The notes below the pieces were generated by a model. That model saw nothing but the letters and a program-made list of their open reading frames with translations, did no database searches and had not been told where the DNA came from. Below are positions 11,221-57,726 of a DNA stretch of 64,000 nucleotides, in pieces (the stretch's first letter is position 1; each line of letters opens with the position of its first letter). The DNA is taken from the NCBI GenBank assembly GCA_001600815.1, contig BCKZ01000012.1:1-64000 (forward strand), read 5' to 3'. The translations under genes and the position numbers were made by a program. The stretch comes from Alloascoidea hylecoeti. Its lineage: Eukaryota.

Positions 11221-11451
11221 AGCTAATGAATAGAAGTTTTGAAGGGTTATGAAAGTTTAAATAATTATCAAATTGATGATACTAATTTAAAATCATATTT
11301 TGGAAGAGAAAAAGGGTCTATATATATATCAGTTTTTCATGATGATGAAAAGTCATAACTCTGAATCTAATTAATGATAATTATAATCTGATTTTTAATT
11401 AACCTTGAAAATAGTTACTATATTATTAGAAGAAAGCTAAGAAATTTCAAA

Positions 11452-11792
11452 CAAAAGATGGATATTTAGTTAATTCAAAGAAGATCTTGTCAATCGTCAT
11501 ATAATTATCGGGATTCATTCTATTTTATGGATTTATGACTACTTCAACGTAGTAATATTACCTTAAACGGGGAACCCAGGGCAATTAGAGGTCATTTAAG
11601 TCGTTCATCTTGTAGTTTGATTTTCAAAAGATGGATATTTAGTTAAAAATCAAAGAAAATCTTGCCAATCGTTATATAATTACTGGGATTCATTGTGTAT
11701 TATGANTACATCTTCGTAATAGTATGACCTTNAGCGGGAATTCCNTGTCAAATAGAAGTCATTTAAATCNAGTATCTTCTAGTTTAATTCTT
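11452..11792. repeat. Diverged tandem duplication (period 173 bp) in the THI5 upstream region
   Basis: caaaagatggatatttagtta at 11452 and 11625, with collinear similarity throughout. Confidence 0.85.
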
Positions 11793-11862
11793 GGNAGATA
11801 GCTATACGTAGTACTTAGACTTCTCCGACTCAGTAAAATTACTTAAGGTATAATTTATTATC

Positions 11863-12440
11863 ATCTGAATTGGGAAATAAATCTCAGATTTGATTCCGAG
11901 TCATGCAATAATCCAATAGGATATTCAAAATGTAAAACAATATAAAAATTTATTCAAGAATTGTTCAATCGATTCATGAACCAGATAGCATACCGAGATG
12001 GATAATCAAATGTATTGCCTATGATTATAGCACTGTGGGGTCTGTCAAGATTATTATTGTAGGTTACTTTTATAATTATCGGTACTAAACACTACAAAAA
12101 GATATAGATATACATGTATTACTTTAAACGGTAATGCTAGATCAATTAAGATGTTGTTGAGTCGTGTATCTTTTAATTTGATTGTCGGAAGAAATAATGC
12201 TCCAGATCCGAACCAACTCGGTAAAAGTACTAAATGTAATTTAATGCAATGCATATATAAATTAACATTAATATCTGAATTGGGAAATAATGCTCATGAT
12301 GTGATTCTGAGTCATTCATTGAATGAATAAAAAACCAGTCAATAAGTATTCACAATTAAATCTCCAGCAACGAGTTAAAAATTCAATACTGTTCAATCGA
12401 TTTATAAACCCGAAATATAATGCTGAGATAAATAGTCATA
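11863..12440. repeat. Dispersed ~150-170 bp diverged direct repeat (11863-12010 and 12273-12440)
   Basis: atctgaattgggaaataa...gagtcat...tgttcaatcgatt is shared by both copies. Confidence 0.75.
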
Positions 12441-13750
12441 TAAGGTGTGTGCACCCTGCATGGTCTTGATGTTTTCTTGGCTGAGGGAAACACATCTCCA
12501 AAATTTATATATGTAGCGCGTAAAACTTACTCTCTTCTTAAACCATGAAAAGCATGTGTGGTCAATTCACAGAGCTTTTAATGTCAATGGAAAAGATGAT
12601 GACTCAAATGTAAGACTCAACGTATGGAGGGGCGAACGTGTAGGTTAAATGAGTTTGTGATCTGCCTACAATTGCAAACATGAAGAGGACATTCGCAAAG
12701 AAGTTAACTGGCGATTTGTAAGTACTTGGGCTCTTACCAGTACGTACATTTGAATCTAGTTTCCTAACTCCTTATAATAACATATACTTGATCCGTGTAA
12801 TATGTGCTATATTTCCACATAAATTAGGAGAGATGTCAACCTGGTAATATTTTTCATTCTATAACGCTCATATTCATTAAATTTACGTTTTTCCAACCCG
12901 AAATATAGCTCTGCATAGCGAGAGTAGCTATGAGAAATGAAATTGATCATGGCAAATTTCTTGTAACTGAGTCTTACAATTATCATTTTAATATTAATTA
13001 ATTGTAATCATAATAGGAAAAAAAAAGAGTAAAAATTACTTATAATTAGATAAATTTACGTTTGAGACCACTGGCATAATTATAGTGTTTACATAAATTA
13101 CATTACTGTCGCATCACACCTGATTTCAAATAGTATTTCCACTCTGAACTTAATATGTTAGAAGGGAGCTTAAAAGATATTGAATTAATATATATATTAA
13201 AACTCTAGCTGTTTTTTGTCCTCTTGTATGTATGTAATAGAAAAGACAACAAATATTAATTTGCCAGTAGTTATGATCCTTTAAAATTGAACAATCATCA
13301 GATATATATCGATCTAGATTCAAATCATACGTAATGTAAGCTTAAATAAAGTAACCAATTTATTAATTTTAACTAATTAAAAGATGTATAAAAATATAAA
13401 GTCAACTGAAACGCATCCTTTTACTCGTTATGGGATAAAATTATATGAAAGTGGTACATGTAAGCTTATAAGATTATATCATTTAGAAGTTAAAACTAAA
13501 GACGATGATTAATATATTAAATTACCATATATGGTGTAGTATATCATACATAATACAGTGCAAAAGTTTACAATTAGAATATTAATACAATCAGGACCAA
13601 CCAATTTCAAATTAAAACCAAGAGAAACGTTATCGTGTTTAAAATAAAGAAAATATCTGATATGAACCACAAGGTTTTAGTTAAAGCTGAGCATGATTAT
13701 TAATGATGATAATATATCATTAAGGTTGAATTGAAAATATAATAAAAGAC

Positions 13751-13951
13751 TTAGGCAATGATACAGTTGTGTGGAATATGATAATTGGGTACATATACAA
13801 CTTCTATAATGATAAATTATTGTTAGTTAGTGTATATGATTATAAAATTAATAGATTATGTCAACTTACCTGTGTGGTGGTCTTTGTCTTGAATGATTGC
13901 GGATTTCTTGTTTGAAGCTGAGAATTTGGTTTGAGAGATAGTGTTAGCCAT
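13751..13951 (-). CDS. MFA: a-factor-like lipopeptide mating pheromone precursor (2 exons, 44 aa)
   Basis: Exons 13951-13870 and 13803-13751; intron GTAAGT...ACTAAC...TAG. Product MANTISQTKFSASNKKSAIIQDKDHHTEVVYVPNYHIPHNCIIA* ends in a CAAX box. Confidence 0.85.
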
Positions 13952-14014
13952 TGTTAAGTAATAGTAAAGAGTGAATGTGAATGATATTGACAAATTGAAG
14001 GAAATTTGCCTTCC

Positions 14015-14479
14015 TTTTATAGTCAACTCTCGTCTATAACTTTGAATCAGGATGGTTTCCAATATTTCCTTATATAATTAATTATAACCCCAGAAAAGCA
14101 TAATAAACATTACAATGCCAGTACCATAGCCAGCTAGATAAAGTAATATTAAACTTTAGGATATCTCTGTTTCAACTCTTAAACTTTCGGAACCTTAACT
14201 ATTATCTACCGCATATGGTATATTTTTTAATTATATATTACATCTATATATATATATGAATTTAAATAAAACCATATATATGGTATATCTGATAATGTTA
14301 CAAAAATTCATTCTTTCAAATCTTGATAGTGAAATTGATACAAACTAGTAATAAAGTTATAAACTTCGAACTTATGGAATCGATATCAAACTTCATGAGG
14401 AGTGAGTCATGTTCTAAAGAAGGATAACCTTCAGTTATTTGTGACAACCCATTTGATTTTCAAACTGGTATGTGTTTCA
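14015..14479 (-). promoter_or_regulatory. Pheromone gene promoter: TATA, Ste12-type PREs, Mcm1-like site
   Basis: TATAAAA at 14021-14015; TGAAACA at 14174-14168 and 14479-14473; TACC-N6-GGTA at 14207-14220. Confidence 0.5.
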
Positions 14480-15603
14480 TTATTAATTATAACCATCAGT
14501 TAAGCTACCATCTCACAACTTTTATATATGCATATGTGTGTGTCAAATTTGTCAATATGCATAGATTTCAAGCAGGTCTGAAATTTTACCTTTATATTTC
14601 ACTAAATCCTACTTTCAAAGTGAACCAACCACATTTGAAACATTATAACCTATTTGGAATAGATGGAGAAGCAGAAGACCGATATCTACTTTATAGTTAG
14701 ATGTAGAGCGTGTGCCGTGCGCCGTTTAGCCGTATATGCCGTATTTCCACCGTAAATTATTTGTACAAATGAAAATTGTTTGGCAAAATATCAGCGGCTA
14801 GAAATACCAAACAAATGTGAAAAACTTGGGAAAATATGAGATCTTAACTTATTACGTATATTATCAGCAAAATTTTTCTTTTAATACTATAAACAAACGA
14901 ATGAATACTTTTAAATGTAAGGTTTTCCATCATAAAAACAATTGTACCCCATTTAATAACAATTTAAAAATGAAAGAAGGAAAAAAAAAAACAATATATT
15001 AAAAACACCTTTTCTTCATTTGTCATTTGTCTTGGATATCTATATTCAATCTAGGTCTCAAACAAATCCAAATATATATATCTATATATCAATTAAGAAC
15101 AACTTCCTTTGTACCGGCCAGTAAATTGACATGCAAATATTAACCGCTTGTATTCATTAAATAAATGAAGATAATGCGTATTTTGTTTTGTTTAAGTATG
15201 TAGTTATTATATAACTGGAAACCAAAGGTGGTTTGTTCCTTTAATTGATAGATGTTTAATCTAGAATTGAGTATAAAACATAATAAATGCTGTAAATATT
15301 GATGAACAAGAATATCTCGTAGTTGCAACTCTAGAGTAAAATTAATATAACTCGTTATGGAAATTGCAATCTAAATAAATAAAAAAAAAAAACAAATAAA
15401 AGATTAGGTACAAAGATAAAAGAGATAACAAAATGTATCTATATATAAAAAAATAATGTCTGTGTCTTTGATTTTCATAGTTGCGATTGAAAATATAATT
15501 ATGATTGATCTTGTAAAGCAATTGTATATCTATGATGGTAAGCAAATTTTTTAAGCATGTAAGGATTAATATACCGACAAACCATAATTAATCACAATAT
15601 AAA

Positions 15604-15643
15604 TTTTGTTTTGTTTTGTTTTGTTTTGTTTTGTTTTGTTTTG
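15604..15643. repeat. (TTTTG)8 microsatellite
   Basis: Direct reading. Confidence 0.9.
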
Positions 15644-16631
15644 TCATTATTTTCGTTTTTTAAAGAAAAATTGATTATTAAAGCTACCGAGATTTATCAA
15701 GTTTATCTGTTATTTTTATTCCTAATATGAAATATTTTTAATAATAACTTAAACTTTTAATCTTAATCTTTAATAATCCTTTATTTTCTGGATTTAGTGT
15801 TTCAGCATAATGAATTATAATTTTCATAGATAAATTTGTAATCAAATGAGTTAACATTTGCGAATTAGATGCAATGCAAAGCTTTATTATCATTAACATG
15901 TAATTGCGCATTATAACTAGAATTCTAAGAAGAAGAAAAAATGGTTAATTTTGTTGTTGTAATTTTTGATTTCTCTTTTGTTTCATAGAGGAAGGATACT
16001 AATTGCGATATAAAGGGGTTAACAAAGTAAAGATAAAATAAAAAAATAAAAAAATAACAACGATAATAAAAAGATAATAAAATTAAAAAATTAATTGATT
16101 ATTTTCATAGATTGAAAACCCCAAATTATAACGTAATCAATTATAAACAGAGAATCCAATAAAAAAAAGAACAAAAATATAAAAACATAAAGTTATTAAG
16201 ATAAATAAACAATAACGAAACATAAAAACAACGATGATATATATATATTTATAAATAGAAAAAGCAATAATAACAATAACAAGTAGCAAATAATTATAAC
16301 AATACATATAAAGCAATCATATTTATAATGAGATCTATAAATTTTTAAAACAGATTACAAATTAATAGATATCTTGCTATATTCTTTTTCAAATTAAATG
16401 ATATATATATCAATCAATTATTTCTGTTTCCCCATAATAAAAAAGCAAAAATAAAAAATATTAATAGTAAAAGTATAAACAGAAATAAAAATAGCGAGAA
16501 TAGCAAAAAAAAATTATAGTAAAAAAAAGTTCTGATCAATCAAAGAAATAAACTGAGTTCCTAATTACCCCAATAGAATTTTCAGTTTAAATACTTTTTA
16601 TTTGTATAATTTCAAAAGTTTTATTCTTATA

Positions 16632-19019
16632 TTAACAAGAACATAACCATTGAAACCCTCCATTATTATGATAATCATTCAGTATAACAAACCCAACAAC
16701 ACCACATATAACATATAATAAAGCAGTGAGTAATAAATGCATGAAATTCTTAATTATTAGTAAATCTCCAAACTTTTTAATATTTTCCGTCAGAAATTTC
16801 ATCTTCTGGATGTCTTTGCCAACAGTAGTATCATTTTTAATTTTAGTCTGTATTAATGAAGATCTATCCTTTAGTTTTAAATTTGATGTTGGAGATGATT
16901 CAGCTGATAAAATAGAATATGAAGTTGAAGAAGAAGAATAAGATGCATTTGAATTTGAATCATTTGAACCATTTGAACCATTTGAATTTTCACTTGGATG
17001 AAGAGGGGTTGAAAGTTCAGTATCTATTAATGGTGATGGTGATAAATGTTTCCCCCGCTTAGATCCATTAACATTAACACTAAGATTATCATTTTTATGA
17101 TCACTGCATTGTAATTTATTTTCATAATCTTGACATTTCTTTTGTAATGATGCATTTTTCTTTGAATATTCAAAAGTTATATTTTCAGCACTTTTAACTC
17201 TTTCATGATATAATTTGACATGACATTTATATTGTTCTAATTGAGTCATTAATAAACTTAAATGATTTGAATCAATTAATTCCATTCCAGCTGTTGATGA
17301 TTTCCTATTTCTTAACTTTAGATCTAAACCAGAACTAGAATCTTCTTCATTTTCATTTTCATTCTCATCATTATCTGATTTTTGTGGTTGATTAAAAGAA
17401 GAAATAATTGTTTTTCTTTTATTATTATTCAAAGATGGTAAATATTTATTCCTGTGTATTAATGATCTTGTTCTTGAATTTCTAAAATTTTTATAATTAT
17501 CATCATCATTATCATCATGATTTTGTGATATTGGTGAATCGATACTTGGTAATTCAGGTTCATTAATTGACTTACTAACAATCAATTGCTGTTCATCATC
17601 ACTTATTTCTTCAAATTCATCACTATCAGAAATTGGTTCTAAATTAGGAATAATATCTTGATCAATTTCATCATACATATAAGAAGATCTAGAAGATAAA
17701 ATTTCATTAGTAGATGAATATCTAAAAGTCTGAGTTTCTTCATCAGCAAATGGAGAATTATTATGTAATTTTAATTTTAATTTTAGTGAATTAATTTCTT
17801 CTTTATAATTTTTTTCTTTTTCAATAAATTGTTCATTTAATAAATTTATAATTTTCTTTTGTTTATTAATTAAATTTTTTGATTCTTCAAAATCAGATTG
17901 TTTATTAAATAAATTGTCATTTAATAATTCAATTTTTGAATTTTTTTTATCAATTTCAATTTTTAATAAATTTAAATTTTCTTTTAAAATCTTTTCATTT
18001 TCTAAAATTTCTTGAATTTTTAAATTTTTATTTGTTTGATTATTTTTAAATGATGTTAAAAATGTTTGTAAATTTTCAAATTTTGCATTTTCAAGTCTAG
18101 ATGAATGAATTTGGGATATTAATAGTCTTATTGTTGTTTCTAATTGGGACGAAGTACCAATTCCTGAATTCATAAATAAACCTGCAATGTTGCCCGTCGG
18201 TATACCTAGTGCTAAATCATCTAGTTGAGGATCATTTGATTGAAATACAGCGGAATCGAAAGCCTCTTTTTTCATTAATAATTTCTTGTTGTTAGCTAGA
18301 TCAGTATACGAACCGTTCGTTGTTATCGGATCTGCTTGTTGCTGTTGCTGTGGTTGTTGCTGTGGTTGGGAAAGAGGTGAAGAGGAAGGATCTGATAAAG
18401 AAATAAGATCAATAGATTCAACTCTAGCTGCTATCTTTTTGTGAGCCAAAGTTTTTTGGTCGTCATTTTTAATATCTATACCTAATTCTAAAATATCACC
18501 AGCTTTTAAAATAAAAGGATCACTTTCACAATTATCAGGACTTAACCTTTTACCATTAATATAAGTACCATTAGATGATTTACAATCTTTGATGAAAACT
18601 TGACCTGTTTGCTTGTTAACCCAGCATTCTGCATGCTGACGAGATAAGACCCGGGAATCGAAATACCCATTAGACGGATCTGGAACAGTTTGATGATTTG
18701 TCTGACGACCCAACTTCAAAACCTGGGGGAAAAAGGGTAATATAAGAGATTTGTAAGTGAAGGTATCATTTAGTGAAATTAATTTTAAAACAGTAGCGTG
18801 TTGAAGGCGAGATGGAGAGTTTGTAATGGTTGAAACTGAGGAACGTGAGTTTGCACGAGCTCGAGGGCGACCAGCACCAGCAGGGGCAGCGACGCCACCC
18901 CCAACGTTAGCAGTAGCCACTGGGCCTGAATTTTGCTGCTGTGAGTTCATGGACGGGAGGGACGGGAGGGCGAAAGATTCTACAGCTGTGCCTGAGTAAT
19001 GTTGGTTTTGTGCGAGCAT
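16632..19019 (-). CDS. VPS64: FHA-domain, coiled-coil, tail-anchored STRIPAK/Far complex subunit (Far9/Vps64-Far10, SLMAP-like)
   Basis: LKLGRQ..NGYFDSRVLSRQHA..IKDCKSSNGTYING FHA domain, a coiled coil and a C-terminal TM segment. First ATG at 19019. Confidence 0.85.
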   Translation of the reverse strand: MLAQNQHYSGTAVESFALPSLPSMNSQQQNSGPVATANVGGGVAAPAGAGRPRARANSRSSVSTITNSPSRLQHATVLKLISLNDTFTYKSLILPFFPQVLKLGRQTNHQTVPDPSNGYFDSRVLSRQHAECWVNKQTGQVFIKDCKSSNGTYINGKRLSPDNCESDPFILKAGDILELGIDIKNDDQKTLAHKKIAARVESIDLISLSDPSSSPLSQPQQQPQQQQQADPITTNGSYTDLANNKKLLMKKEAFDSAVFQSNDPQLDDLALGIPTGNIAGLFMNSGIGTSSQLETTIRLLISQIHSSRLENAKFENLQTFLTSFKNNQTNKNLKIQEILENEKILKENLNLLKIEIDKKNSKIELLNDNLFNKQSDFEESKNLINKQKKIINLLNEQFIEKEKNYKEEINSLKLKLKLHNNSPFADEETQTFRYSSTNEILSSRSSYMYDEIDQDIIPNLEPISDSDEFEEISDDEQQLIVSKSINEPELPSIDSPISQNHDDNDDDNYKNFRNSRTRSLIHRNKYLPSLNNNKRKTIISSFNQPQKSDNDENENENEEDSSSGLDLKLRNRKSSTAGMELIDSNHLSLLMTQLEQYKCHVKLYHERVKSAENITFEYSKKNASLQKKCQDYENKLQCSDHKNDNLSVNVNGSKRGKHLSPSPLIDTELSTPLHPSENSNGSNGSNDSNSNASYSSSSTSYSILSAESSPTSNLKLKDRSSLIQTKIKNDTTVGKDIQKMKFLTENIKKFGDLLIIKNFMHLLLTALLYVICGVVGFVILNDYHNNGGFQWLCSC

Positions 19020-44688: not shown

Positions 44689-46134
44689 TTAGTTCTTACC
44701 AGCACCGGCTCTAAAGTAAATGATGTCTCCGTCTTCAACAACATAATCCTTACCCTTTTGTAAAAGCTTACCATGAGCCTTAACTGCAGTGTCATCTCCA
44801 AATTCTATAAGGTCATGATATTTGGTAACTTGAGCAAGGATAAAAGTGTGCATAAGATCGTTATGAATAACACCTGCCGCTTGAGGAGCCTTTGTACCAT
44901 TTCTAATCGTCCATTCTCTAACCTCATCAGCTCCACAAGTGAAGAAGGAGATAAGATTAAGAGTTTTACGCATGCTAATAGTAATTTTTGGCAAGGCACT
45001 TTCCATTCCAAGAGTCTTACACTCTTCTTCTCTTTCAGCATCAGTTTCCATGTGTGAAAGTCTCTCTTCAAAACTGACACTAAATGGGATGATTGCATCA
45101 CCAGGGGAAAATTTATCAACCCATTGTTTAATACCTAAAAGATGCTTATTCTTCTTTCTCTTGTAGTCCTTTTCAGACAAGTTAATGAGATATATTGATG
45201 GTTTAGCCGTTAACAATAACATAGTATTGATGACTTCTACTTCTTTAAAAGTCCACGTTTGATTAGCAACTCTTCCACCACTTTCCAAAAGATCTATAAC
45301 TTTCTGAACTGTAATGGCTTCATCCTTTTTAGCCTTAACTTCCAAGGATTGTCCACCTCTTTTGACGATTTTCTCAACCGTTTCAAGATGATTCTTAGCA
45401 AATTCAATATCTTTTAATCTCAACTCTTCATTAATAATTTCCAAATCTCTGACTGGATTGACATCACCTTCAATATGAATGATGTCAGCATCGTCAAAGC
45501 ATCTGACAACTTGGTAAATAGCATCAACAGCTCTAATATTTGAAAGGAAGGCATTTCCCAATCCTTCACCCTTTGAAGCACCTTTAGTTAAACCTGCAAT
45601 ATCAAAGACGGTAATATGAGCTGGGACTTTGGATGCCGGTTTGTACATCTCACATAATTTTTCAAATCTTGGAGATGGAACAATGACTCTTGCCTCTTCA
45701 GGTTCAATGGTAGCAAATGGATAATTGGCAGGCTGGAATTTTTTAAAAATTAGCAAAAGGCTCTAAAGTGATAGGGTATTCAACAATTGCAACAGTTTGT
45801 ACTTACGTTTCCAAGGGGACATCTTGTGATTGCTTGAAAAAAAGTTGATTTACCAACCTAATTATAACGTCAGCTTAAGCAGAAAGATGTTAACGACTCA
45901 ATTAAACAATTCTTACATTAGCAAGACCAACAATACCACTCTTAAAAAAAAGTTAAAGATAAATTAATATTCATATTCATGACAATTCCTATGGATCATA
46001 ACTTTTGGAAGCGAAAATCCCAAATTTTCACAACGATGTAGATCAGCAAAATAAGACAACGAGCATACCTTCAAATTGTTTCCTGGTCTTCCCAACAAAA
46101 TTTTCTTTTCTTCAACCTTCTTCTTTGGTGGCAT
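44689..46134 (-). CDS. OLA1: Obg-like ATPase (4 exons)
   Basis: Introns 46068-45941, 45916-45858 and 45806-45733 give GIVGLANVGKST..NYPFATIEP..DIAGL. Confidence 0.97.
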
Positions 46135-46526: not shown

Positions 46527-47925
46527 CTATTCTTCGTTTTCCAACCAATCGCCAAACTTTTCAGCCCGGCTTCCACTATTTTCGTCCTTTTTCTTCCTGT
46601 ATTTCACAACTCCATCATAAAGAGATGCCTCAAGTGTTCTTCCTCCGAAGAATCTCCCATTCATTTTCTAAATTCCAAATATCAATTAGCCTTAAGCTTT
46701 AAAAGCTTCTGAAATCAGAATATGTTCAAATAACGTACCTGAATGCATTTAATTGCCTCTTCTTTAGTCGAAAACCTCACACTTACAACTCCTTCTGATT
46801 CCAAATCAAATAAGACCGTATTTTTGACTTCTCCAATTTCATTACATCCTGTCCTTATATCCTCTTCAATATCGTTTGCTGCATTTTCATCGTTCTATTA
46901 GAGGTTAGTAAAAATCAATCTTTTTTCCTTCCAAATGTTAACTCAATTGATGCGTACCTCAAGTTCATCAAGGGTAAACACATGCTTTAGTATGACAACT
47001 TTATCCCATCGTTTGTAGAGATCTTTTTCTTTTTCTTTCTTTATTGCAACATCATCATCATCATCCCAGTCTTCAAGTTTGCTATTTAAATTAATATAGT
47101 TAGTGACACTTAGTTTTGAAACTGCCGATCAACAGGTAAAACATACTTATGTAATTTTTGAAACCGTTTTTGGATTGCTTTCTTCTCTTTTAAAGACCTT
47201 TCTGGAATCACATCCTTTTTATATTCGCCTCCGTTTTCAGTCTGTTTATGCGAGAAGTCAGCTTTCTGGACTTTTATCTTTACTGGATTTTTTGTATCTT
47301 CTATTCGTAAAGTACTATCATCAAGCATTTCAATCGCTAAATGCACGCTTTCTTCTCTAAAATACACCACAAGCGCGTCTCCTTTAAAATTATTTGTTTT
47401 TTTATCTCTATAAAGCCGAATTTTCTTTTTACCGGTTATCAGATCTTCTGCAATAACGCCATATTTAGAGAACACATCTTCCAATTCTTCCTCTGTTGTA
47501 TCAATGGGTAAATTCGATACATAAACAGCAGTATTCCTTATCGGTTTCTTCTGCTTTTCATTTGTCATTTTCTTAGATTTCTTCTTATCTTCTTGAGATG
47601 TATTTTCTTCATTATGATTAGGTTTTCTCCTTTTATTTCTTTTTCTTTCCTCTTTTATCCTTTCCCAATCTTCTTCTGTAAGATCCTCAACCTCTTCCCC
47701 TTCATTTAGATACGCTTTCCTTTGTAGTTTTATAGCTTGCTCATTCAAAATTGGGATCCATTGTTTTGCAACTGTATTAAATTCATATTCCAACCCCGTT
47801 TCTTCATCTTCAATGATGTATCTTCCGGTATTGTTATCAAGTGCTACACGAGGATCTTTTATGAACTCTAAATGATCAGTAGATAGAGAAGATAAAAAGT
47901 TTGCTTCATTATTAGAAGATGTCAT
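46527..47925 (-). CDS. CUS2: U2 snRNP-associated RRM/UHM protein (Tat-SF1) (4 exons)
   Basis: NTAVYVSNLP..FKGDALVVY; introns 47146-47082, 46957-46895 and 46738-46668; MNGRFFGGR. Confidence 0.92.
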
Positions 47926-49079
47926 AATTTCTAATAATTTAACCTACACAGTATAAAGATTTTATTAAATTAGCTTCAAAGTCAGGGTAATTATTATATG
48001 GTAGGATTCTTGCAACTTTTTTTCGGCCAAAAAATATGCATGTATCTGTATCTTTACATATATTACGCTATGTGGAAATAGAGTACCATACATATGCATA
48101 CACTTATTTGTTCAAAGTAGAATCGCAGTTTCGCCATTACTGGTAGTTTAATCAAATGTAACCCTATTTCAAACTATTTGTATGGCCGCTTAATCTGGAG
48201 GTTTAAGTATACAATACTATACAGATTAAGTAAAAGGGAAAAATAATCACACAGAGAAATGCAACAAAAATTAATTTGAAATGAAGAGATTTACACTTGC
48301 CATTTATGTACCTCCCGGTTGTCTTCAATACATAATGGAAGTGATTTTGGTGGTGTGGGTACTGTTCCGCGAGGAGTGTTGAGATTCTTTTCATTTATCT
48401 ATAAGTTGTTCATTTTAAGTGACCCACACCATACCTGAAAGGACTAGAAATTGATGAAAAATCAATTTTGAGATTCGTATAGGTATCATATTTACATCTT
48501 TGAGACCAATATCGATAAAGAAAACAATCAGACAAGTTATATCGATACAATAAGGTTACAGAATAATTGATATCTGGAGTGAATATGCATTGACTTTATA
48601 AAAATTTGTTTTGAGTGTACATTTATGCCATTTCATAAGAAAGGTTTGGTGGATGAAGAACCCCGTTAAGCTTTAAACCAGTACCGTGAAAAATGTCCGA
48701 TATCGAAATCTAAAGAGTTTCTCGGGGGTCCATTTGTGGTACTATGAGTTCCCTTATAATTTTGAAAAATTATATATCTTATTCAATAATATGGGTAAAA
48801 GGACTGATTGTCTGTTACTAATATAACAGGTGATTCAACACATGTTCATACTCTATTTCATTTCTGTTCAAAATCACAACTAGACAACATATTGCGATCT
48901 GCTGGATGGGTCGAAAATAATCTACAGTGAGTTATATACTAATATTATTAGTTAACTATAAATTTAGGCCCAGTGTATATTCTAGATCTATTTAAGTTTA
49001 TTATTGTGTAATTAACTTATATATGGTACAGTTATTGGAATTGCGATTGAAGATTTGAAAATAGTAAATTAAATAGTTA

Positions 49080-51704
49080 CTAAGAATGTTTTACAAGGTT
49101 AGCAATTTTCAAACGTTCAGTCCCATCTTTAGCACCCTTCTCTCCGCAGACCTTCTTAGAAAGATCATCCTCTATATACCACGAGCGCCTCTTATCATCA
49201 TCATCATCATCATCATCATCGTCATCATCATTATCATCACCGTCATCATCTATATCCATGTCATCATCAAAGTTGTCTGATGAGGCTTTTTCTTTACCTT
49301 TGGAGCCGCTGGTGGTCCTTTGATCAGATGTATCCATAACACTGACTGAATTATTACTTGCAATAACAGTATCTGATTTACTTGAACTTGATTCACTAAC
49401 ACTATTACGTTCAGGATTTTGCACGATTTTCGAAATGGCTTTTTCTAATTTTCCTGATTTAATTACCTGAGAAAAGTAATTTAACTTATTAGCTTTGTCT
49501 CCACAATATTTTAGCCTTTGAGAATCCATAAATATGACGGATTGATTTTGTGACCAATTGCACTTTTTCATAATCTCCCTTGTTTTGTCGATGATCACCT
49601 TTCTTCTTCGATAAAACACTCTTATATCACCACTATTACGCCATTTATTCTTATAGCGGTTATCTAGATATGTAATTGAAAGCCGTGTACCGTCAGGAAA
49701 TGCTGCATAACCTTCAAACCATTCATACCACAGTTCTGCAACACTATAAATGTCACGTCTCATTCTATATAAAGGAGGGTCAAGGGGATCTTTGGGAAAG
49801 TCAAAAGATTGAATTGGTGTATTGGAAGATGTGGAGTGTGATGAAGTATGTATAAGATTAGATGTTACAACTGTCGCCTTCTCAAGTTTATCCATCATTT
49901 TCGTGAGATTGTTTAAAGAGACGGTTAATAATGAATCACGGGTATTCATCCGCTTAATATTTCGGTTAAATTGTGATTTGAAAGAAACCATTTCCGATTT
50001 AAACTCGTTAAGTTTACTTATAGTCTGCCTATTTTGGATTGCCATTGAGGTCTGAAGGTTAGAAACCTGCGATTGAAGTTCTTTGTTATTTAGTATGAGT
50101 TCATATAGTTGGTCCTCGACATCCGGCCGTGCAAGTATTGATAGTATATCTTGAGGATCATCAGGAATAAGACATTCTTCCAGAGATCTCCCAAAATCGT
50201 TAAATCGCCTACACCTAAAAATTGGGTGGGTGAAAATAATATTGTCGGGAAACATTTTTTTCAGTATAACAGCATCTTGTAAAATACAGATTCTAAGATA
50301 TTTGCAAAGTTTCAAGAATGAATCAGAGGCTACAAAAGATGAAGAAGGATTGTCGGCCATCTCCTCCTCCATTTCTTCGATCTCGGGCCAAATTTCCATT
50401 TGTAACTCCACTGGAGGAACCAATCCGGCACGGCAGATATTATAATTATGGTTTGTTGTCGGATCAAACCCTGACATTGCCTTAAGCCATTCCAATGGCA
50501 TTAGTTTGCGATATTCATTTTCAATTCCATTCAATTCCCAAATCCCCGATTCTTTAACTTGCGCACCTGTAAAATCTTTCAGTTCAATTACCTTAGCTTT
50601 TATTGAAGGTGAAAAATAACTCGGGAAGGAGGGAGTTTTATTAAACGAGTTTTCAACACTTGTAAGCCAATAGGCCTGGGTTGTGTAATCTAATGTGCCA
50701 TCTTCATTGCTTCCTTTTAGGAGAGGTAAAGTGAGCCACTCTGGACTATTCACTTTAGGAAATGGTTCCTTATCTAATGTGAACCTCACAAAAAAATAAA
50801 AGGCAAGCTTGGAAACAGGGCATAATCGTACATCTTTGTTCCTTACCATTGCTCCCAACTCAGTTCTTCCGTACCCGTCAGGTTTTTCTTTTTGAACCAA
50901 AAGGCATACTGCCTTTGCCTCAGAAGAGCCCTGATCACCAAGATCTACTATTGCTAAATCAGATAATTGAGCAGCACGCCTCTTTCGACCATCTAACAAC
51001 ATATAATGGCGTAATATAAAATCTAGAGAAGTTCTGTAGTTTTCTTGAAAATGGAATTCTACCCTCCAAGGTTTTTCAGCAAAATGCAAAAATTCACTTT
51101 CTTGAGAACCCAATAAAATTGTTGATAGTCTCTTACCAGTGTACCGTTTTTTATTGTAAATCATTTGATTTCGCTTTACTGTTTCGATTAAAGACATTAA
51201 GCCTGGGCCCTTTGGATCTTTGATACCCTCTTGGTAAGCTTTTTGTCGGTTATAAAGAGAATCCAGGCAAGTAACAATTGAGGCAACAGTAACGTATTTG
51301 GGATGTTTTGGTATTATCTCCTCCTGTAAATAGGCAACTATTTTTCTCTCGGATACCAGGTAATCGAAACCTTTTTTGTCGCAGTAAGAGTAATAAGATT
51401 TTAGCTTATCGTCGAAAGAGAACACCGACGGAGCTTTCAGAGGCTCCGCTGGATTTCTTGTCATCCATAATGAGTGTTTCGTCCTCATCCCTAAGTGCGT
51501 TCCAAATGTCTCGTTGCATGTGAGTCGTTCAAACTGAAAATCGGGTGAAATGCCATCTGTGATCGGTAGGGTAGTTAGTGCACCTCTCTCTAAAGCCAAG
51601 TTCTCTGGATCTGGAAGGGGTTCAGCTAGGTTACTTAGATTCTCTGATATCTCTAGAAATTTATCTGGAACATATTCTTTATTTTTATAGATAATAGGTT
51701 CCAT
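49080..51704 (-). CDS. Crypton-derived protein: Ndc10-type tyrosine-recombinase-like domain plus Gcr1 C-terminal DNA-binding domain
   Basis: AQLSDL..GAMVRNKDVRLCPVSKLAFYFFVRF..LKAMSGF..PPVELQMEIWP..YLRICILQDAVIL...YRMRRDIYSVAELWYEWFEG..LDNRYKNKWR..FYRRRKVII. First ATG at 51704. Confidence 0.85.
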   Translation of the reverse strand: MEPIIYKNKEYVPDKFLEISENLSNLAEPLPDPENLALERGALTTLPITDGISPDFQFERLTCNETFGTHLGMRTKHSLWMTRNPAEPLKAPSVFSFDDKLKSYYSYCDKKGFDYLVSERKIVAYLQEEIIPKHPKYVTVASIVTCLDSLYNRQKAYQEGIKDPKGPGLMSLIETVKRNQMIYNKKRYTGKRLSTILLGSQESEFLHFAEKPWRVEFHFQENYRTSLDFILRHYMLLDGRKRRAAQLSDLAIVDLGDQGSSEAKAVCLLVQKEKPDGYGRTELGAMVRNKDVRLCPVSKLAFYFFVRFTLDKEPFPKVNSPEWLTLPLLKGSNEDGTLDYTTQAYWLTSVENSFNKTPSFPSYFSPSIKAKVIELKDFTGAQVKESGIWELNGIENEYRKLMPLEWLKAMSGFDPTTNHNYNICRAGLVPPVELQMEIWPEIEEMEEEMADNPSSSFVASDSFLKLCKYLRICILQDAVILKKMFPDNIIFTHPIFRCRRFNDFGRSLEECLIPDDPQDILSILARPDVEDQLYELILNNKELQSQVSNLQTSMAIQNRQTISKLNEFKSEMVSFKSQFNRNIKRMNTRDSLLTVSLNNLTKMMDKLEKATVVTSNLIHTSSHSTSSNTPIQSFDFPKDPLDPPLYRMRRDIYSVAELWYEWFEGYAAFPDGTRLSITYLDNRYKNKWRNSGDIRVFYRRRKVIIDKTREIMKKCNWSQNQSVIFMDSQRLKYCGDKANKLNYFSQVIKSGKLEKAISKIVQNPERNSVSESSSSKSDTVIASNNSVSVMDTSDQRTTSGSKGKEKASSDNFDDDMDIDDDGDDNDDDDDDDDDDDDKRRSWYIEDDLSKKVCGEKGAKDGTERLKIANLVKHS

Positions 51705-53141
51705 AGCTTTTTGTGGTCGAAAATAATAAAAAAAGGATGAGTTGAAGATAAGCAGACTGAAGGATGTATCTGAACTTTTTGAAGTATGCTGGGTGGGTAG
51801 CCAAGCCAAATCTAAAGTTGCTTTTTTCGGGTTACTACTCCAAAAAAATAAAAATGAGTAACCGTTCCTAAAAAGTGGATAATATTGCGTAAATTATAGA
51901 TAATCCAGTCCAAATTAGATGGCATTTTAAGCTTGATATTCATATTACTGTTAAGGCCATTATCATCATATGCACCCTAGCTACGAGGGCATGAAGTATT
52001 AGGAATTTAGGATCTCCAACTACACTGCTATACCTACATGTAGGGCCGCCTTTCCAAATTACATCCCATATCATAAGATTGACGGACTCAGACTTCCTAT
52101 ATATGGCTATAATTACTGTATCGACTGACGTCATTGAATACAATACCGGAATTTGATACACCACCCTTTCAGCACATTAGAAGGCAGGGTTATTGGAAAT
52201 TCTCTTTACCGTGAACTGTACAGTTGAAGGATTACCATAATATTATATGTCTACCTATTTCGGCAATTAAGAACACATGCTTACTCAAATTACATATTTC
52301 AATCTGCTTCGATGGTTGCGACTGCTTTTTAGGACTACAACCACCTGAAATCTCGCTTAATCCCATTCTAGAAGCTTTTTCTATGGGAATATAACTAAGC
52401 TTTGTAAGCTTCTTATATAAGCTCGGTGGACATACAACGCTCTCAGGTAAATCTTCATATAAAATGAGCTTTTCCTCAAATATTTTTACCTTTTTTCCCG
52501 TCTAATATCTTCTGGGGACAAAAAAGATAAATTCCAGTTTCTGCAAAGCTAGATTGAAGATTTTTAGGGTTATAACTTCATCGCTTGCCTTCTGGTGTAT
52601 TGTAATAAACTTCCTTTTGGAGGCCAGTGACCGGGGGGACTTGTTACTACCTTTTCGTTGTAGATACTTTCCAACCTCGTCTTTGATGATAGATCTTTGG
52701 CGATTGGAATGAATTGAACAGGTATGAATCTCTCAGGATTCAGCTTAACATAACTACCAATTTCTGACTCTCCTGTTTTAAAAAGGATATATACAGGAGC
52801 TTGAAATAAACAGAAGCGAAAATCTCCAAAGGGTCAACACAGATGTTCTATCTATCATAATTATGGAACTGATCGGTGTTATAGCTCAATTTGAGTTTCT
52901 TAATATTAGAAATAATCATTACATTGTTAAAATATATACCTACAGTAAAATAGATAAAAAGGCTAGCCATAAAATGAAGTGGGGTTTCCCCAAAGCAAAC
53001 AAAAAAGTCTTTCGAATTCTATTCAGATGCAGAGAGAAAAATTAAAAAGAAAAGTTAGAAACCCTATCAACTGGCAATCAATTTTAGATAACAGTATTAT
53101 ATATAATGAAGATGAACTGTTATGATATTATATTATATATC

Positions 53142-54338
53142 TCATTCATAAGATTCTGATAAATTCACCAACAGTTGAGCTAAGCATCTTTTTGTAGCAG
53201 CATCATCTCTTAATACAATACTGAAAGTGGCATCACGTAAAGGTTCGGGCAAATATTGTCTTAAAGCTTTTCTAGCTTCTGGATTATCTGAAAGTCTCAG
53301 GTAGCACCTAACGACATGCTTCAATAATCTTACTGTTTGTTGATCTACCAATTGTTTAACCATATTAGCTAACACATTAGCCACGGCAGAAAATCGTTCA
53401 TAGGTTTGACAAACGTAGTTTAACCCCGCATCATCCATGATAATCTTTTGAACAATGAATATCGCAACAGTTTTCGATAATTCAGAGGATGCTTCCATGA
53501 TTCGTAAACAAAGAGGTATTATTTCAGTTGTTAATAAAAAGTTAATGACTTCTGGGGAATCGTTTTTAACCAATGCTCCAATAACCCCCAAAGAGGTTAG
53601 TCTAAGGTATTCGAAAGGTCGTTGTTTGGATTCCGTGTTTAAGAAGGGATATAAATACAACGGAATATGAGCATTTAGAAACAAACTCCTTGTATCGTTA
53701 TGAGATGCAACACATTGCAATAATGCCAATGCATTACAGACACGATTTGAAGCTGTGGCTGATAAAGTAGGAGGACTCAGCATAGGATAAACAAAAATTA
53801 TTTCTTCTAATAAAGCTGTCATAACCCCAAATGAATGCCATAAAATTAATGCCAAATCCTCATACTGTTCCCTTTTTTTTCCTAATTCCAATAAAGCTTG
53901 TTCTCGTTCACGGTTGGGCCCGTAGACCAGATCAACTATCCATTGATAAACTTTGTCATCTTCTAGTGATTTGATAACTCCACCAGTCATTTCACTCATA
54001 GTACTAGGTCTTTTGCTATTTTGTTTCGCCATACTGCTATTTAAAGAGGCAAGCATTTGCTGTTGCTGAGTTGGTTGGGGAGGCTGAATTTGTCCTTGGG
54101 CTTGCTGCTGACCTTGCTGACCTTGCTGTGATTGTTGTTGTTGGTGTTGTTGAATAGCAGCTAAAGACAATGAATTTGAATTCGAGTTTCCCAAGTATGA
54201 TTGACCATATTGAGAATTGAATCCGAGAGATTGTTGTCTCTGCTGCTGTTGTTGCTGTTGTTGCTGCTGTTGTTGCTGCTGTTGTTGCTGTTGGGCCTGA
54301 GCTTGAGCTTGATTGAGATAGGCAGACTGAGAATACAT
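53142..54338 (-). CDS. CAF40: CCR4-NOT subunit Caf40/Rcd1 with poly-Gln N-terminus
   Basis: [30 protein letters not shown] and [19 protein letters not shown] motifs. Confidence 0.97.
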
Positions 54339-56088
54339 ACTTTTTGGAATTATTTTTTCTTTATTAAAATGAAGAAAGCAACTAGTTATATTATTTGTGT
54401 GATAATAAATTTGGATGTATAGATTGTAAGTGTACCTCTGTACCCTTGTAGGCGGAGAAAAAGTGGAAAAGGGTGTTGGGACGTTACCAATCATAACGCA
54501 ATTGTCTAGACTGCTGGAAATTGGAAATTGCTACCATCATTATCATTATACCTTCAGTCAAGAGGATCTCATACATCAGCTATAATCCCGAGAGACGCTC
54601 CAAATACGAAAAAAGTACCATAAACCGGTCTCTTTTAGCTGTAATATGCGTCCCCAGATTTAAGTTCTATATTGGTGCGAAAAAAGAAGTATACTCGAAA
54701 TATAATAGTCGACTCATAAAATGATTCGCACTTTTTCTAATACAATTCACATGTACACACAGTAACACATACCTAGTGTACTTTCTGATGAAAAGAGTGT
54801 TTAATAATATTGCTTATTTGTTGCATATGTTTGGGTCCTATCGGCGCTACTTCATTAGCTGTGTCAGAGCTACGGAAAGCACTCAATACACTGGAAAACT
54901 TGAATGAGCCATCTTTTAGACTTAATTCAGGTATAAGGAGTCTTATCAAGATTTTAAAACCTATTCTTAACATTTATAGAACCGTGGAAATGGTGAATTA
55001 TACGGTAAATAGACATATACCTCTCTATCTTTACGAGGTATTCCACTGTTGAACAACGCCAAAGATTCCCAAAAGCTAAAAAAAGGCCAGGTTCTCCCGT
55101 GTCTCATCCAATATGAGCACATTTTATATAAACAATATATAAATTTGTTAAATTTAAAAAATGCTTTAGTTTTTGTGTTTCTTATGGTGAAGGTGTGCCG
55201 GCGGTTAACACACATAATGCTGACTATGATATAGATTATAGAACCATATTAAAAAATTATGCCCAAGCTTATAAAGATATATCACTTTATATCTCTTTAT
55301 TGAGAGAATCTGATATTGGATTTTGAGTTCAGTGTACCCCCGTTTAAATCCATTAGCTGTAGTTGTCGTTAACCGAGTAGTGGATGATGTGATTGAAGAT
55401 CTTGTTTCATTTAATAATAGATCGAAAGGATTCTTTACCACAATGCCCATGCACGATTTAGAGATTTATATAACGAGATATTTTTCCTATCTGAGATTCA
55501 TTGCAATTTTACATACACTAGCCCTACAGTAATCTTTCCAACATTCACCAAATTTCACCGATTTTCATACAGCTCTCAGTGACCGAGCCACGACCTACGT
55601 GCTGGGAAAAACATTTACTCAATTGAATAAATGATAGTCATTCCGCTTAATTTTGGCCATGCTGATTATCAATTATTGGCCACACACATAACATAAGTAT
55701 CTAATTTTGGGCTCCATTATGACCGGTATAACCGTTAATTTGCACAGTATGGAACCAACCCCGGCCGAAAATAGTTATGGAGATGGCCTAAATCAAGTGA
55801 AATCTGTGTGTCAAAAGAAAAACAAAAATAAACGGAATTCAAACAAGCTTAATTATAAGATAATAAGCAAAAATGGTAAACTTTTATAAAATTTTAATTA
55901 TCACGTAACTTATATATGTAATAATTTTACTGTTATTCATTATAATTCCTTCTTTTTCTTTTTCTTTTTAACTATGATTATGTGAGATACGTGTAGTATG
56001 TGTGTCCGTTTGATAAATATGAGAGATAAAGACAAAAAGGAAAAAGAAAAAAATACCAAATCTATTACTATTATATTATGGAAGTTGT

Positions 56089-57726
56089 TTACATTTCTTC
56101 CAAAGGAGCTTCATCACCATAATCTATATCTTCATCATCAATACCAGCATCTTGATATTGTTGATATTCACTAATTAAATCATTCATATTTGATTCAGCT
56201 TCAGTAAATTCCATTTCATCCATACCTTCATCAGTATACCAATACAAAAAGGCCTTTCTTCTAAACATAACACTAAACTGATCACCAATTCTTTTAAATA
56301 TTTCTTGGATTGAGGTTGAATTACCAATAAAAGTAGCAGCCATATCAAGATCAACAGGAGGTACAGAACAGACGGCAGATTGTACATTATTTGGTATCCA
56401 TTCAACAAAATAAGCTGAATTTTTAGTCTGAACATTTAACATTTGATCTTCAACTTCTTTAACAGAAACTTTACCTCTGAAAAAAGTAGCAACAGTTAAA
56501 TATCTACCATTTTTGGGGTCAGCGGCAGCCATCATATTCTTTGAATCAAATAATTGTTGAGTTAATTCAGGAACAGTTAAAGCTCTAAATTGTTGAGAAC
56601 TTAGGGCAGTTAATGGAGCATAACCAACCATGAAAAAATGTAAACGTGGGAAAGGTACTAAATTAACAGCCAATTTTCTTAAATCAGAATTTAATTCACC
56701 AGGATATCTTAAAGAAGTTGTAACACCAGACATCACAGAAGAAACCAAACCATTTAAATCTTCCATTGAAGGTAAATTTAATTTTAAAGTACGTTGACAA
56801 ATATCATATAAAGCATCATTATCAATACAAAAAGTTTCATCAGAATTTTCAACCAATTGATGAATTGATAAAGTAGCATTATAAGGCTCAATAACTGTAT
56901 CACTGACTTTCGGAGAAGGCAATACGGAGAAAGTAGCCATCATTCTATCAGGATATTCTTCTCTGATTTTAGAAATTAATAAAGTACCCATACCTGAACC
57001 AGTACCACCACCTAGAGAATGGGTGATTTGAAAGCCTTGTAAGGAGTCACAACCTTCAACTTCTCTACGAACAACATCTAATACCTGATCGACTAATTCA
57101 GCACCTTCGGTATAATGACCTTTTGCCCATACATTACCGGCACTTGCTTGACCGTAAATGAAGTTATCAGGACGGAATAAATTACCAAAAGGGCCAGAAC
57201 GAACAACATCAATGGTACCAGGTTCTAAATCAATAAGTAGAGAACGAGGAACATATTTACCTCCATTGGCCTATGATTCTAAAGTTAATTTTCATAACTA
57301 TTGAAGAGAAACAAGATTACAAACATACTTCATTAAAGTAGACATCTAGACGGTCTTTTTGAAGATTGGAAGTTCCTTTATAGCTATATCAATATGTTAA
57401 TAAAGTAATAAAGTAGGGAAGATCTGCATTTGATTTACATACGTTCCAGATTGGTCTATACCGTGTTCTGAGCAAATAGTTTGCCTGTACGATGGGGGTG
57501 GTCAGAAATGATATTTAAAAGATAAAAGATAAAAGATAATTACCAGAAAGCAGCACCCTTGAAATGAAATGGAAAAAGTTAGGATCTTGAGAAATTTTGT
57601 ACACAGAAATTATAAAAAAAACATACGATTTGATTACCGCATTGACCGGTTGACAGATGAACCTGAAAAATGGTTAGTAGCTGAGTGGAGGGATGAGGAT
57701 CTGGTGAAGCTTACGATTTCTCTCAT
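56089..57726 (-). CDS. TUB2: Beta-tubulin (6 exons)
   Basis: [21 protein letters not shown]; introns 57714-57663, 57626-57558, 57543-57485, 57442-57384 and 57328-57271. Confidence 0.98.

Follow-up and report, generated by a model that had tools for sequence, protein, structure and literature searches.

A putative domesticated Crypton recombinase gene of the Ndc10/Gcr1/Cdg1 class, with a disabled active site, in Alloascoidea hylecoeti

Does the long open reading frame (ORF) at 49080..51704, on the minus strand of Alloascoidea hylecoeti contig BCKZ01000012.1, encode the recombinase of a mobile Crypton element or a host protein that descends from one, and in the latter case, which domestication does it go back to? 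The DNA analyzed was a single stretch of 64,000 nucleotides (positions 1 to 64,000 of the contig; hereafter the window), and all coordinates within the gene are given on the minus strand. The ORF consists of 874 codons followed by a TAG stop and begins with ATG, in agreement with the uninterrupted frame of about 874 amino acids (aa) described in the initial annotation. The protein P0002 (873 aa), publicly available at NCBI, lacks one Asp of the poly-Asp run but otherwise matches the query exactly; it was translated under the standard code, with Leu at all 7 CTG codons of the gene. A second assembly thus already has the gene annotated as a single intact ORF. The sole difference lies in a run of GAT (Asp) triplets at 49183-49269 (aa 812-837), a polymorphic or assembly-variable microsatellite within the coding region that differs from P0002 by one codon in length. 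The locus is an intact gene, a very divergent form of the Ndc10/Gcr1 class. The ORF is probably a host gene derived from a CryptonF-type tyrosine-recombinase transposon, encoding a putative non-catalytic DNA-binding protein of the Ndc10/Gcr1/Cdg1 class.

Homologues were collected by HMMER from 1.84 billion representative proteins, which yielded 1342 matches at an expectation value (E) ≤1e-3 and 67 at E ≤1e-30. Of the 149 non-self matches listed, 45 were shorter than 450 aa and were dropped; the query was aligned by MAFFT with the other 104. The nearest of the 149 was 30% identical (P0004, E 1.4e-53), and no representative among them exceeded ~31% identity. At the position of the first catalytic Arg, occupied by R in 84/90 family rows, the query carries D238 (GAT; 50991..50993), a residue present in 1/89 other members and at least two base changes removed from Arg; aa 236-239 thus read LLDG, with the G of column 239 common to 80/90 rows. 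The residues E273-K274-P275-D276 (50877..50888) stand where the family reads G-K-T-N, with the Lys retained (K in 94/98) and with E273 and D276 found in 0/97 and 1/97 other members, respectively. Box II, the family T-H-x-x-R, is replaced by S362-Y363-F364-S365-P366 (50607..50621), at columns where H is found in 92/103 rows and R in 98/104; P366 is seen in 0/103 other members, Y363 in 2/102 and F364 in 3/101, and there is no H..R string anywhere in the 874-aa protein. The G-x-W motif G387-I388-W389 (50538..50546; G and W each in 100/104) is kept, as is Y398 (50511..50513) at the nucleophile-Tyr column (Y in 100/103), a residue around which the structural model described below is of low confidence (aa 394-400, predicted local distance difference test [pLDDT] <50). 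The initial annotation had read a disabled recombinase active site from the letters alone, citing LLDG in place of LLRG, the lack of HxxR and the persistence of GIW and a downstream Tyr; the alignment of 105 sequences bears this out at every position that it named, and the catalytic residues are not intact.

The losses were concentrated in one place. Of 31 columns conserved in at least 90% of rows, 26 are kept, and all five that are lost (R238D, N276D, T362S, H363Y and R366P) line the catalytic pocket; at a threshold of 95%, 17 of 18 columns are kept. The full nine-residue set R-R-K-R-H-R-W-Y-R is present in 66/105 aligned rows, so that catalysis appears open to most relatives but not to the query. 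R, K, H, R, W and Y are kept by most of the family, and of these R, H and R are lacking in the query. The intact R...H-x-x-R...Y of an active CryptonF transposase is therefore missing, its R, H and R having become D238, Y363 and P366 with K274, W389 and Y398 kept. Judged from the sequence, the catalytic losses are selective, the DNA-cutting site being gone and the DNA-binding parts kept. Cre, Flp and lambda Int require both catalytic arginines, and loss of either abolishes activity in the tyrosine recombinases studied. With both arginines and the His lost, we infer that the protein would neither activate the scissile phosphate nor cut or rejoin DNA. A still-active recombinase or transposase with a non-canonical active site would account for the retention of K274, W389 and Y398, but is scarcely credible given the replacement of both arginines (by Asp and Pro) and of the histidine (by Tyr), the single copy in the window and the failure to find element termini there.

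Both domains expected of the class were found when the profile search proposed in the initial annotation was carried out. Pfam NDC10_II was matched at aa 220-501 (E 7.2e-49, 167 bits, cut-off 26.3) and GCR1_C (PF12550) at aa 646-730 (E 1e-16, 61.4 bits, cut-off 23), the latter over profile positions 1-80 of 80. An AlphaFold2 model built from the 105-sequence alignment (mean pLDDT 73.9) was confident over a two-domain core (aa 96-510) and a compact helical domain (aa 645-765), with disordered stretches at aa 1-95, 589-639 and 769-859. The core comprises a helical N-terminal domain, aa 96-215 (51060..51419), and a tyrosine-recombinase catalytic-fold domain, aa 216-513 (50166..51059). According to the model and its alignment by VIA-align, the former is the equivalent of the tyrosine-recombinase core-binding domain and of Ndc10 D1; its block pLDDT is mostly 80-97, falling to 56 at aa 191-200, and its family-conserved columns lie at aa 150-199. 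The latter corresponds to NDC10_II by both Pfam and VIA-align and is catalytically degenerate. The query thus has the two-domain fold of tyrosine recombinases (helical core-binding plus catalytic domain), and it has both the NDC10_II domain and the Ndc10 D1-D2 fold. The GCR1_C DNA-binding domain, compact and helical, extends in the model over aa 646-765 (49410..49769; block pLDDT 83-98).

Among solved structures the model was closest to Ndc10. The best Foldseek matches were Ndc10 entries (4aco, E 1.1e-11; 6gyp_E, 6gys_E, K. lactis 3sqi_A and 6p7x_E), followed by Cre (~1e-5), Flp and XerH. VIA-align, which paired model aa 96..513 with residues 44..507 of 4aco, gave Z 24.5 (4aco), 23.2 and 22.9 (6gyp_E, root-mean-square deviation [rmsd] 3.3 over 293 residues) for S. 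cerevisiae Ndc10 and Z 20.5 for K. lactis Ndc10 (3sqi_A), the Ndc10 structures overall spanning Z 24.5 to 20.2. True recombinases scored lower, with Flp at Z 16.7, Cre at ~15 (rmsd 3.3-3.5 over 265-274 residues) and XerA, XerH and lambda Int at Z 10-15. At the level of sequence, the family profile matched full-length S. cerevisiae Ndc10 with E 4.7e-37 (residues 20-498, E 1.4e-24; residues 712-942, E 1.6e-10), and the GCR1_C region of the query family was aligned by the profile to Ndc10 712-942.

Outside these domains the protein carries regions of its own. An N-terminal extension, aa 1-95 (51420..51704), is predicted to be disordered (block pLDDT 33-63, mostly <50) and is absent from the family; the first column conserved in the family is preceded by 142 aa, where the median of 85 rows is 54. 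After GCR1_C there are 133 residues, against a median of 17 in the same rows, and these include a lineage-specific tail, aa 766-840 (49185..49409), that is first Ser-rich and then poly-Asp and is disordered according to the family alignment and AlphaFold2. The acidic tail of the initial annotation is accounted for by aa 812-837, which contain 22 Asp, including a run of 12; a D/E run of at least 8 was found in no other of the 85 rows. The C-terminal end, aa 841-874 (49083..49184), has two short predicted helices (H846-852 and H861-873) of low to middling pLDDT. Between the recombinase-fold core and GCR1_C, AlphaFold2 placed one long predicted helix, aa 517-587 (49944..50156; block pLDDT 61-87), which is a possible self-association element. 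It is this region that the initial annotation had called a coiled coil: the helix itself was recovered, but its heptad periodicity was at chance level, the observed power being reached in 664/5000 shuffles. A complex prediction for a self-pair of aa 505-600 scored 0.40, with one control at 0.21, and neither favors nor disfavors a dimer.

The surroundings of the gene were examined for signs of an element. It is flanked by a gene for an RNA recognition motif (RRM) protein (47110-47925) and by one for an Rcd1/CAF40 protein (53142-54494; PF04078, E 2e-121), the latter being the CAF40 neighbor named in the initial annotation; further neighbors are a class I/II-type chitin synthase (CHS), a YchF GTPase, alpha-tubulin and PDS5. 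Exactly one gene lies between the RRM gene and CAF40 (47110-54494). In S. cerevisiae, CUS2 (YNL286W) and CAF40 (YNL288W) also flank a single gene, SEC21 (YNL287W), and if the RRM gene is CUS2, its pairing with CAF40 may be an old neighborhood with a lineage-varying middle gene. The CAF40/Rcd1 protein itself has a long poly-Gln-rich N-terminal extension (a run of ~24 Q) ahead of its Rcd1 domain (aa 185-445).

Several copies, as expected of a mobile element and as the initial annotation had advised looking for, were not seen. Neither tblastn nor blastn gave a second copy in the 64-kb window, the 90% protein cluster of the gene has 1 member from 1 contig, and a word-indexed search of 5.8 billion clusters with the whole protein and with aa 130-530 returned its own record only, plus P0003 at 25% identity. 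A CryptonF transposon would be expected to end in short terminal direct repeats; the flanks held no repeats beyond short chance-level matches, with 6-bp repeats indistinguishable from chance, and Rfam gave 0 matches in the window at the gathering threshold. A metagenome scan with the single protein gave no match. With a six-sequence profile it gave 19 loci whose best segments were 20-32% identical, save L017 (40% over 48 residues); none of the 19 carries the signature of the query, and most of those covering the catalytic columns keep the catalytic set. The six-sequence yeast-type profile found no relative among IMG/VR viral contigs. In the ESM Atlas, a cluster of 67 members, 55% of them with NDC10_II, is labeled 56% Viruses, mostly Uroviricota, a label that may reflect misassigned contigs.

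Could the gene nevertheless be an immobilized, decaying Crypton copy without host function that is still open by chance? The loss of three catalytic residues would agree with this, as would a codon-usage fit that is only middling: the correlation of its relative synonymous codon usage (RSCU) with the other 21 ORFs of the window was 0.80, within their range of 0.44-0.95. The frame itself argues the other way, with 874 open codons in DNA of ~35% G+C, the other five frames of 49080..51704 holding ORFs of ≤64 aa, and with the same ORF intact in a second assembly. The 26/31 top columns kept, with losses all in the catalytic pocket, are unlike the scatter left by decay, and no sister copies were found in the window, the 1.84 billion representatives or the word-indexed clusters. 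Trees were built with FastTree on 100 rows (5 rows with <250 core residues having been dropped) and with IQ-TREE under LG+G4 on 46 chosen rows. The end branch of the query was the longest in both (1.73 and 1.69 changes per column) with the frame still open, so its divergence is not recent. A decaying copy is accordingly very improbable. Ordinary neighbors, a single copy, a long branch with an open frame and added regions fit a gene that has long been resident and is selected for a role without catalysis, and do not fit a recent or decaying element. The initial annotation's intact Crypton-derived host-type gene with NDC10_II and GCR1_C is supported by the domains, the alignment and the selective losses.

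Which domestication the gene represents was then considered against published work. In Kojima and Jurka (2011; PMC3212892), four budding-yeast Crypton domestications are described (Hot1/Msn1, Gcr1, Cbf2/Ndc10 and Cdg1), no Crypton insertions are reported in Saccharomycotina, the central part of Gcr1 is given as tyrosine recombinase (YR)-like with a catalytic site that is not preserved, and Cdg1 is typified by C. tropicalis XP_002548716. Haase et al. (bioRxiv 10.1101/2025.04.25.647736; PMC13017519) state that Ndc10-like genes are widespread in budding yeasts, and their Table S4/Fig. S7 may cover this species. A search of the later literature on Crypton-derived yeast genes gave nothing more specific.

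Cdg1 was weighed as one candidate. According to PMC3212892, Cdg1 (C. tropicalis, C. albicans, Pichia stipitis and P. guilliermondii) is likewise a CryptonF-derived host gene of budding yeasts outside Saccharomycetaceae. It is described from CTG-clade species, whereas the host of the query reads CTG as Leu: of the 5 CTG codons in its chitin synthase, 3 fall at Leu positions of C. albicans Chs2 or S. cerevisiae Chs1 and none at Ser positions. This places the yeast outside the clade in which Cdg1 was defined, and a CTG-clade Cdg1 identity was rejected on that ground; a deeper orthology to Cdg1 may exist.

Ndc10 was approached from both trees and pairwise scores. The query had no supported sister in either the FastTree or the IQ-TREE phylogeny, which held no named Gcr1, Cdg1, Msn1/Hot1 or further Ndc10 sequences. 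A degenerate yeast-type clade of P0091, P0132, P0137 and P0142 had 97% support, and a single clade of the query with P0091, P0132 and P0137 was not rejected in the approximately unbiased (AU) test (p 0.307). When phmmer was run against the PDB, the query matched S. cerevisiae Ndc10 at 40.1 bits over ~300 residues (E 9.8e-10); five other members gave 22, 21, 16.8 and 8.6 bits and no match, the three significant ones spanning only a C-terminal block of 75-85 residues. The query was therefore the most Ndc10-like of the six family members tested. Its sequence gave no match to K. lactis Ndc10 (phmmer, E up to 1). In both HMMER alignments Ndc10 reads E-K-K-D and E-Y-F-N-K where the query has E-K-P-D and S-Y-F-S-P, so that four family-rare residues (E273, D276, Y363 and F364) are common to the query and S. 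cerevisiae Ndc10. Descent from the same old domestication as Ndc10, not from a separate event, is given a little less than an even chance.

The opposite case is an independent, lineage-specific domestication, in which the insertion of a Crypton between CAF40 and the RRM gene in the ancestors of this yeast was followed by its co-option there, apart from the events behind Ndc10, Gcr1, Msn1/Hot1 and Cdg1. By sequence the query matches catalytically intact members better (30%, E 1.4e-53 for P0004) than it does S. cerevisiae Ndc10 (E 9.8e-10, from a search of a much smaller database), although a lineage that had changed more slowly than Ndc10 would also be expected to resemble intact Cryptons. Neither tree gives it a supported sister, the 1.84 billion representatives contain no relative above ~31% identity, and the 5.8 billion clusters returned only its own record; its tail and N-terminal region are peculiar to it. 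With four separate yeast domestications already inferred in PMC3212892, repeated co-option would be the rule. Against this stand the four rare states of the active-site pocket in common with Ndc10, a match to Ndc10 that is the best and longest of six members, the occurrence of D238, Y363 and S365 in the yeast-type P0091 as well, and the AU test, which keeps a clade of the query with P0091, P0132 and P0137 (p 0.307). The initial annotation had offered a possible independent domestication in a lineage not expected to have point centromeres; this was not established and is somewhat disfavored, the four rare residues and the best Ndc10 score leaning to shared ancestry. An independent origin is kept as a minority possibility.

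At the other extreme, the gene could be a true kinetochore Ndc10 orthologue, in a yeast that belongs within or as sister to the orders with point or proto-point centromeres and has a CBF3-type complex at its centromeres. Ndc10 is the closest solved structure (Z 24.5 versus ≤16.7 for true recombinases), all Ndc10 regions have counterparts in the query (D1-D2, the long middle helix and a GCR1_C-like C-terminal part), and rare residues are held in common. The shared architecture does not discriminate, since it is common to every CryptonF protein tested (12/12). Identity to S. cerevisiae Ndc10 is ~20-22%, K. lactis Ndc10 is undetected by sequence, and the query keeps R288, Y398, R425, Q476 and D477, which Ndc10 has lost. 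Kinetochore orthology was consequently judged improbable.

Several observations weigh against the reading of the ORF as a host gene that leans toward Ndc10. Most other long genes exceed its RSCU correlation of 0.80 (CHS 0.92, PDS5 0.95 and a 795-aa ORF 0.94; one 751-aa ORF is at 0.80), and the copy count covers one 64-kb window and annotated proteins. K274, W389 and the Tyr are kept, so some residual DNA chemistry may formally be possible. The leaning toward Ndc10 is circumstantial. Each of the changes G to E, N to D and H to Y takes a single base substitution, and at a site under relaxed constraint they may have arisen by convergence; H to Y is seen in P0091 and P0127 too. The query and Ndc10 both come from AT-rich yeasts, which may inflate their pairwise scores; K. 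lactis Ndc10 is unmatched by sequence, and the free trees give no supported sister.

The gene was compared with known systems one at a time. Ndc10/Cbf2 (S. cerevisiae and K. lactis; CBF3 subunit A; 4aco, 6gyp, 6gys, 3sqi and 6p7x) is the best structural match, with NDC10_II in both proteins. Ndc10 belongs to CBF3 alongside Ctf13, Cep3 and Skp1, binds CDEIII and recruits Scm3. In both proteins a recombinase fold with a dead active site precedes a helical middle portion and a C-terminal part resembling GCR1_C, and E-K-x-D and Y-F occupy the former active site. They are only ~20-22% identical; R288, Y398, R425, Q476 and D477 of the query are changed in S. cerevisiae Ndc10, D238 and P366 of the query correspond to S and K in Ndc10, and a poly-Asp tail is added in the query. 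CryptonF transposon proteins, reportedly the subject of Goodwin et al. 2003, have the YR plus GCR1_C architecture of the query, and both domains were found in 12/12 matches scanned. The CryptonF-type family has the highest sequence similarity to the query (~30% identity, E to 1.4e-53). Unlike CryptonF transposons, the query is single-copy in the window among housekeeping genes, has no element ends that could be found and carries extra N- and C-terminal regions. Gcr1 (with Msn1/Hot1), compared by description, has a GCR1_C domain at its C-terminal end as the query does (PF12550, E 1e-16), and the acidic tail of the query would suit a transcription activator. Gcr1 itself controls glycolytic genes by way of CT-box binding.

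Also compared were Trichomonascus ciferrii TRICI_002073 (P0132; UniRef label 'Transcription activator GCR1') and P0137, P0153, P0154 and P0091, which are standard-code budding-yeast proteins of 790-860 aa. Like the query they have NDC10_II and GCR1_C with degenerate catalytic residues, and P0091 (849 aa) has D238, Y363 and S365 in common with it; they are 21-23% identical to the query, have no acidic tail and are not joined to it in free trees. P0091 groups in those trees with the Trichomonascus ciferrii protein and not with the query. MrpR/YopR, the master regulator of the SPbeta prophage (8a0a and 8bj6), has a tyrosine-recombinase fold (Z 9.4-9.6 to the query) and is non-catalytic. As a bacterial/phage protein without GCR1_C it resembles the query at the level of the fold only, and serves as an analogy for a dead recombinase at work, not as kin.

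If the gene is a domesticated Crypton, the protein would serve as a scaffold that binds DNA without catalysis. DNA would be gripped jointly by the recombinase-fold clamp (aa 96-513, in which K274, R243, R288, W389, Y398 and R425 are kept), binding as Ndc10 D1-D2 does, and by GCR1_C (aa 646-765). The long helix (aa 517-587) may join two subunits, as in Ndc10 and recombinases, and the poly-Asp tail would draw in partners, whether by serving as an acidic activation domain or by binding histones or chaperones. For the cellular role, a regulator of transcription or chromatin is given an even chance, an Ndc10-like centromere or chromatin-assembly factor is a weaker candidate, and some other role is less likely again.

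Three further features of the window were recorded. At 11221-16631, 5.4 kb are without an ORF of at least 100 codons (the longest being 66 and 76), which stands out in a yeast genome that is otherwise compact; at 15500-16700 the G+C content drops to 0.18-0.22, scattered N occur at 11706-11795, and there is no Rfam match and there are no clear repeats. A non-coding region, centromere-like or of another kind, or the remains of a gene could account for this stretch. The tubulin ORF (56089-56991) begins at position 127 of the Pfam Tubulin profile, and the YchF ORF (44689-45648) shows only its C-terminal domain at threshold; exons further upstream are probable for both genes, so introns may be more frequent in this yeast than in Saccharomyces. 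A 751-aa ORF at 36420-38675 matches the Flo11 domain weakly (E 8.4e-06, 26.4 bits, cut-off 25) and is probably an adhesin-type wall protein, consistent with a budding-yeast host.

Domesticated Crypton recombinases supplied budding yeasts with the kinetochore founder Ndc10 and with the transcription factors Gcr1 and Msn1/Hot1, and this gene bears on the number of such domestications and on the role of Ndc10 before point centromeres. It adds one member to a described class and no new kind of system, and is a clean, very divergent example of that class, in which the fold and DNA-binding modules are kept, the catalytic pocket alone has suffered losses and new tails have been gained. The residues common with Ndc10 hint that the domestication of Ndc10 may predate the point-centromere clade, in line with Haase et al. 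2025/26. One tentative extension is that the gene encodes an Ndc10-lineage protein of a budding-yeast order without CBF3 or point centromeres, at an intermediate stage of active-site decay with Arg, His and Arg lost but with the Lys, Trp, Tyr and several of the DNA-contact arginines lost later by Ndc10 still present. Should that hold, the gene would show the pre-kinetochore role of Ndc10, for example as a factor that acts on chromatin or transcription at specific sequences and recruits partners by its acidic tail.

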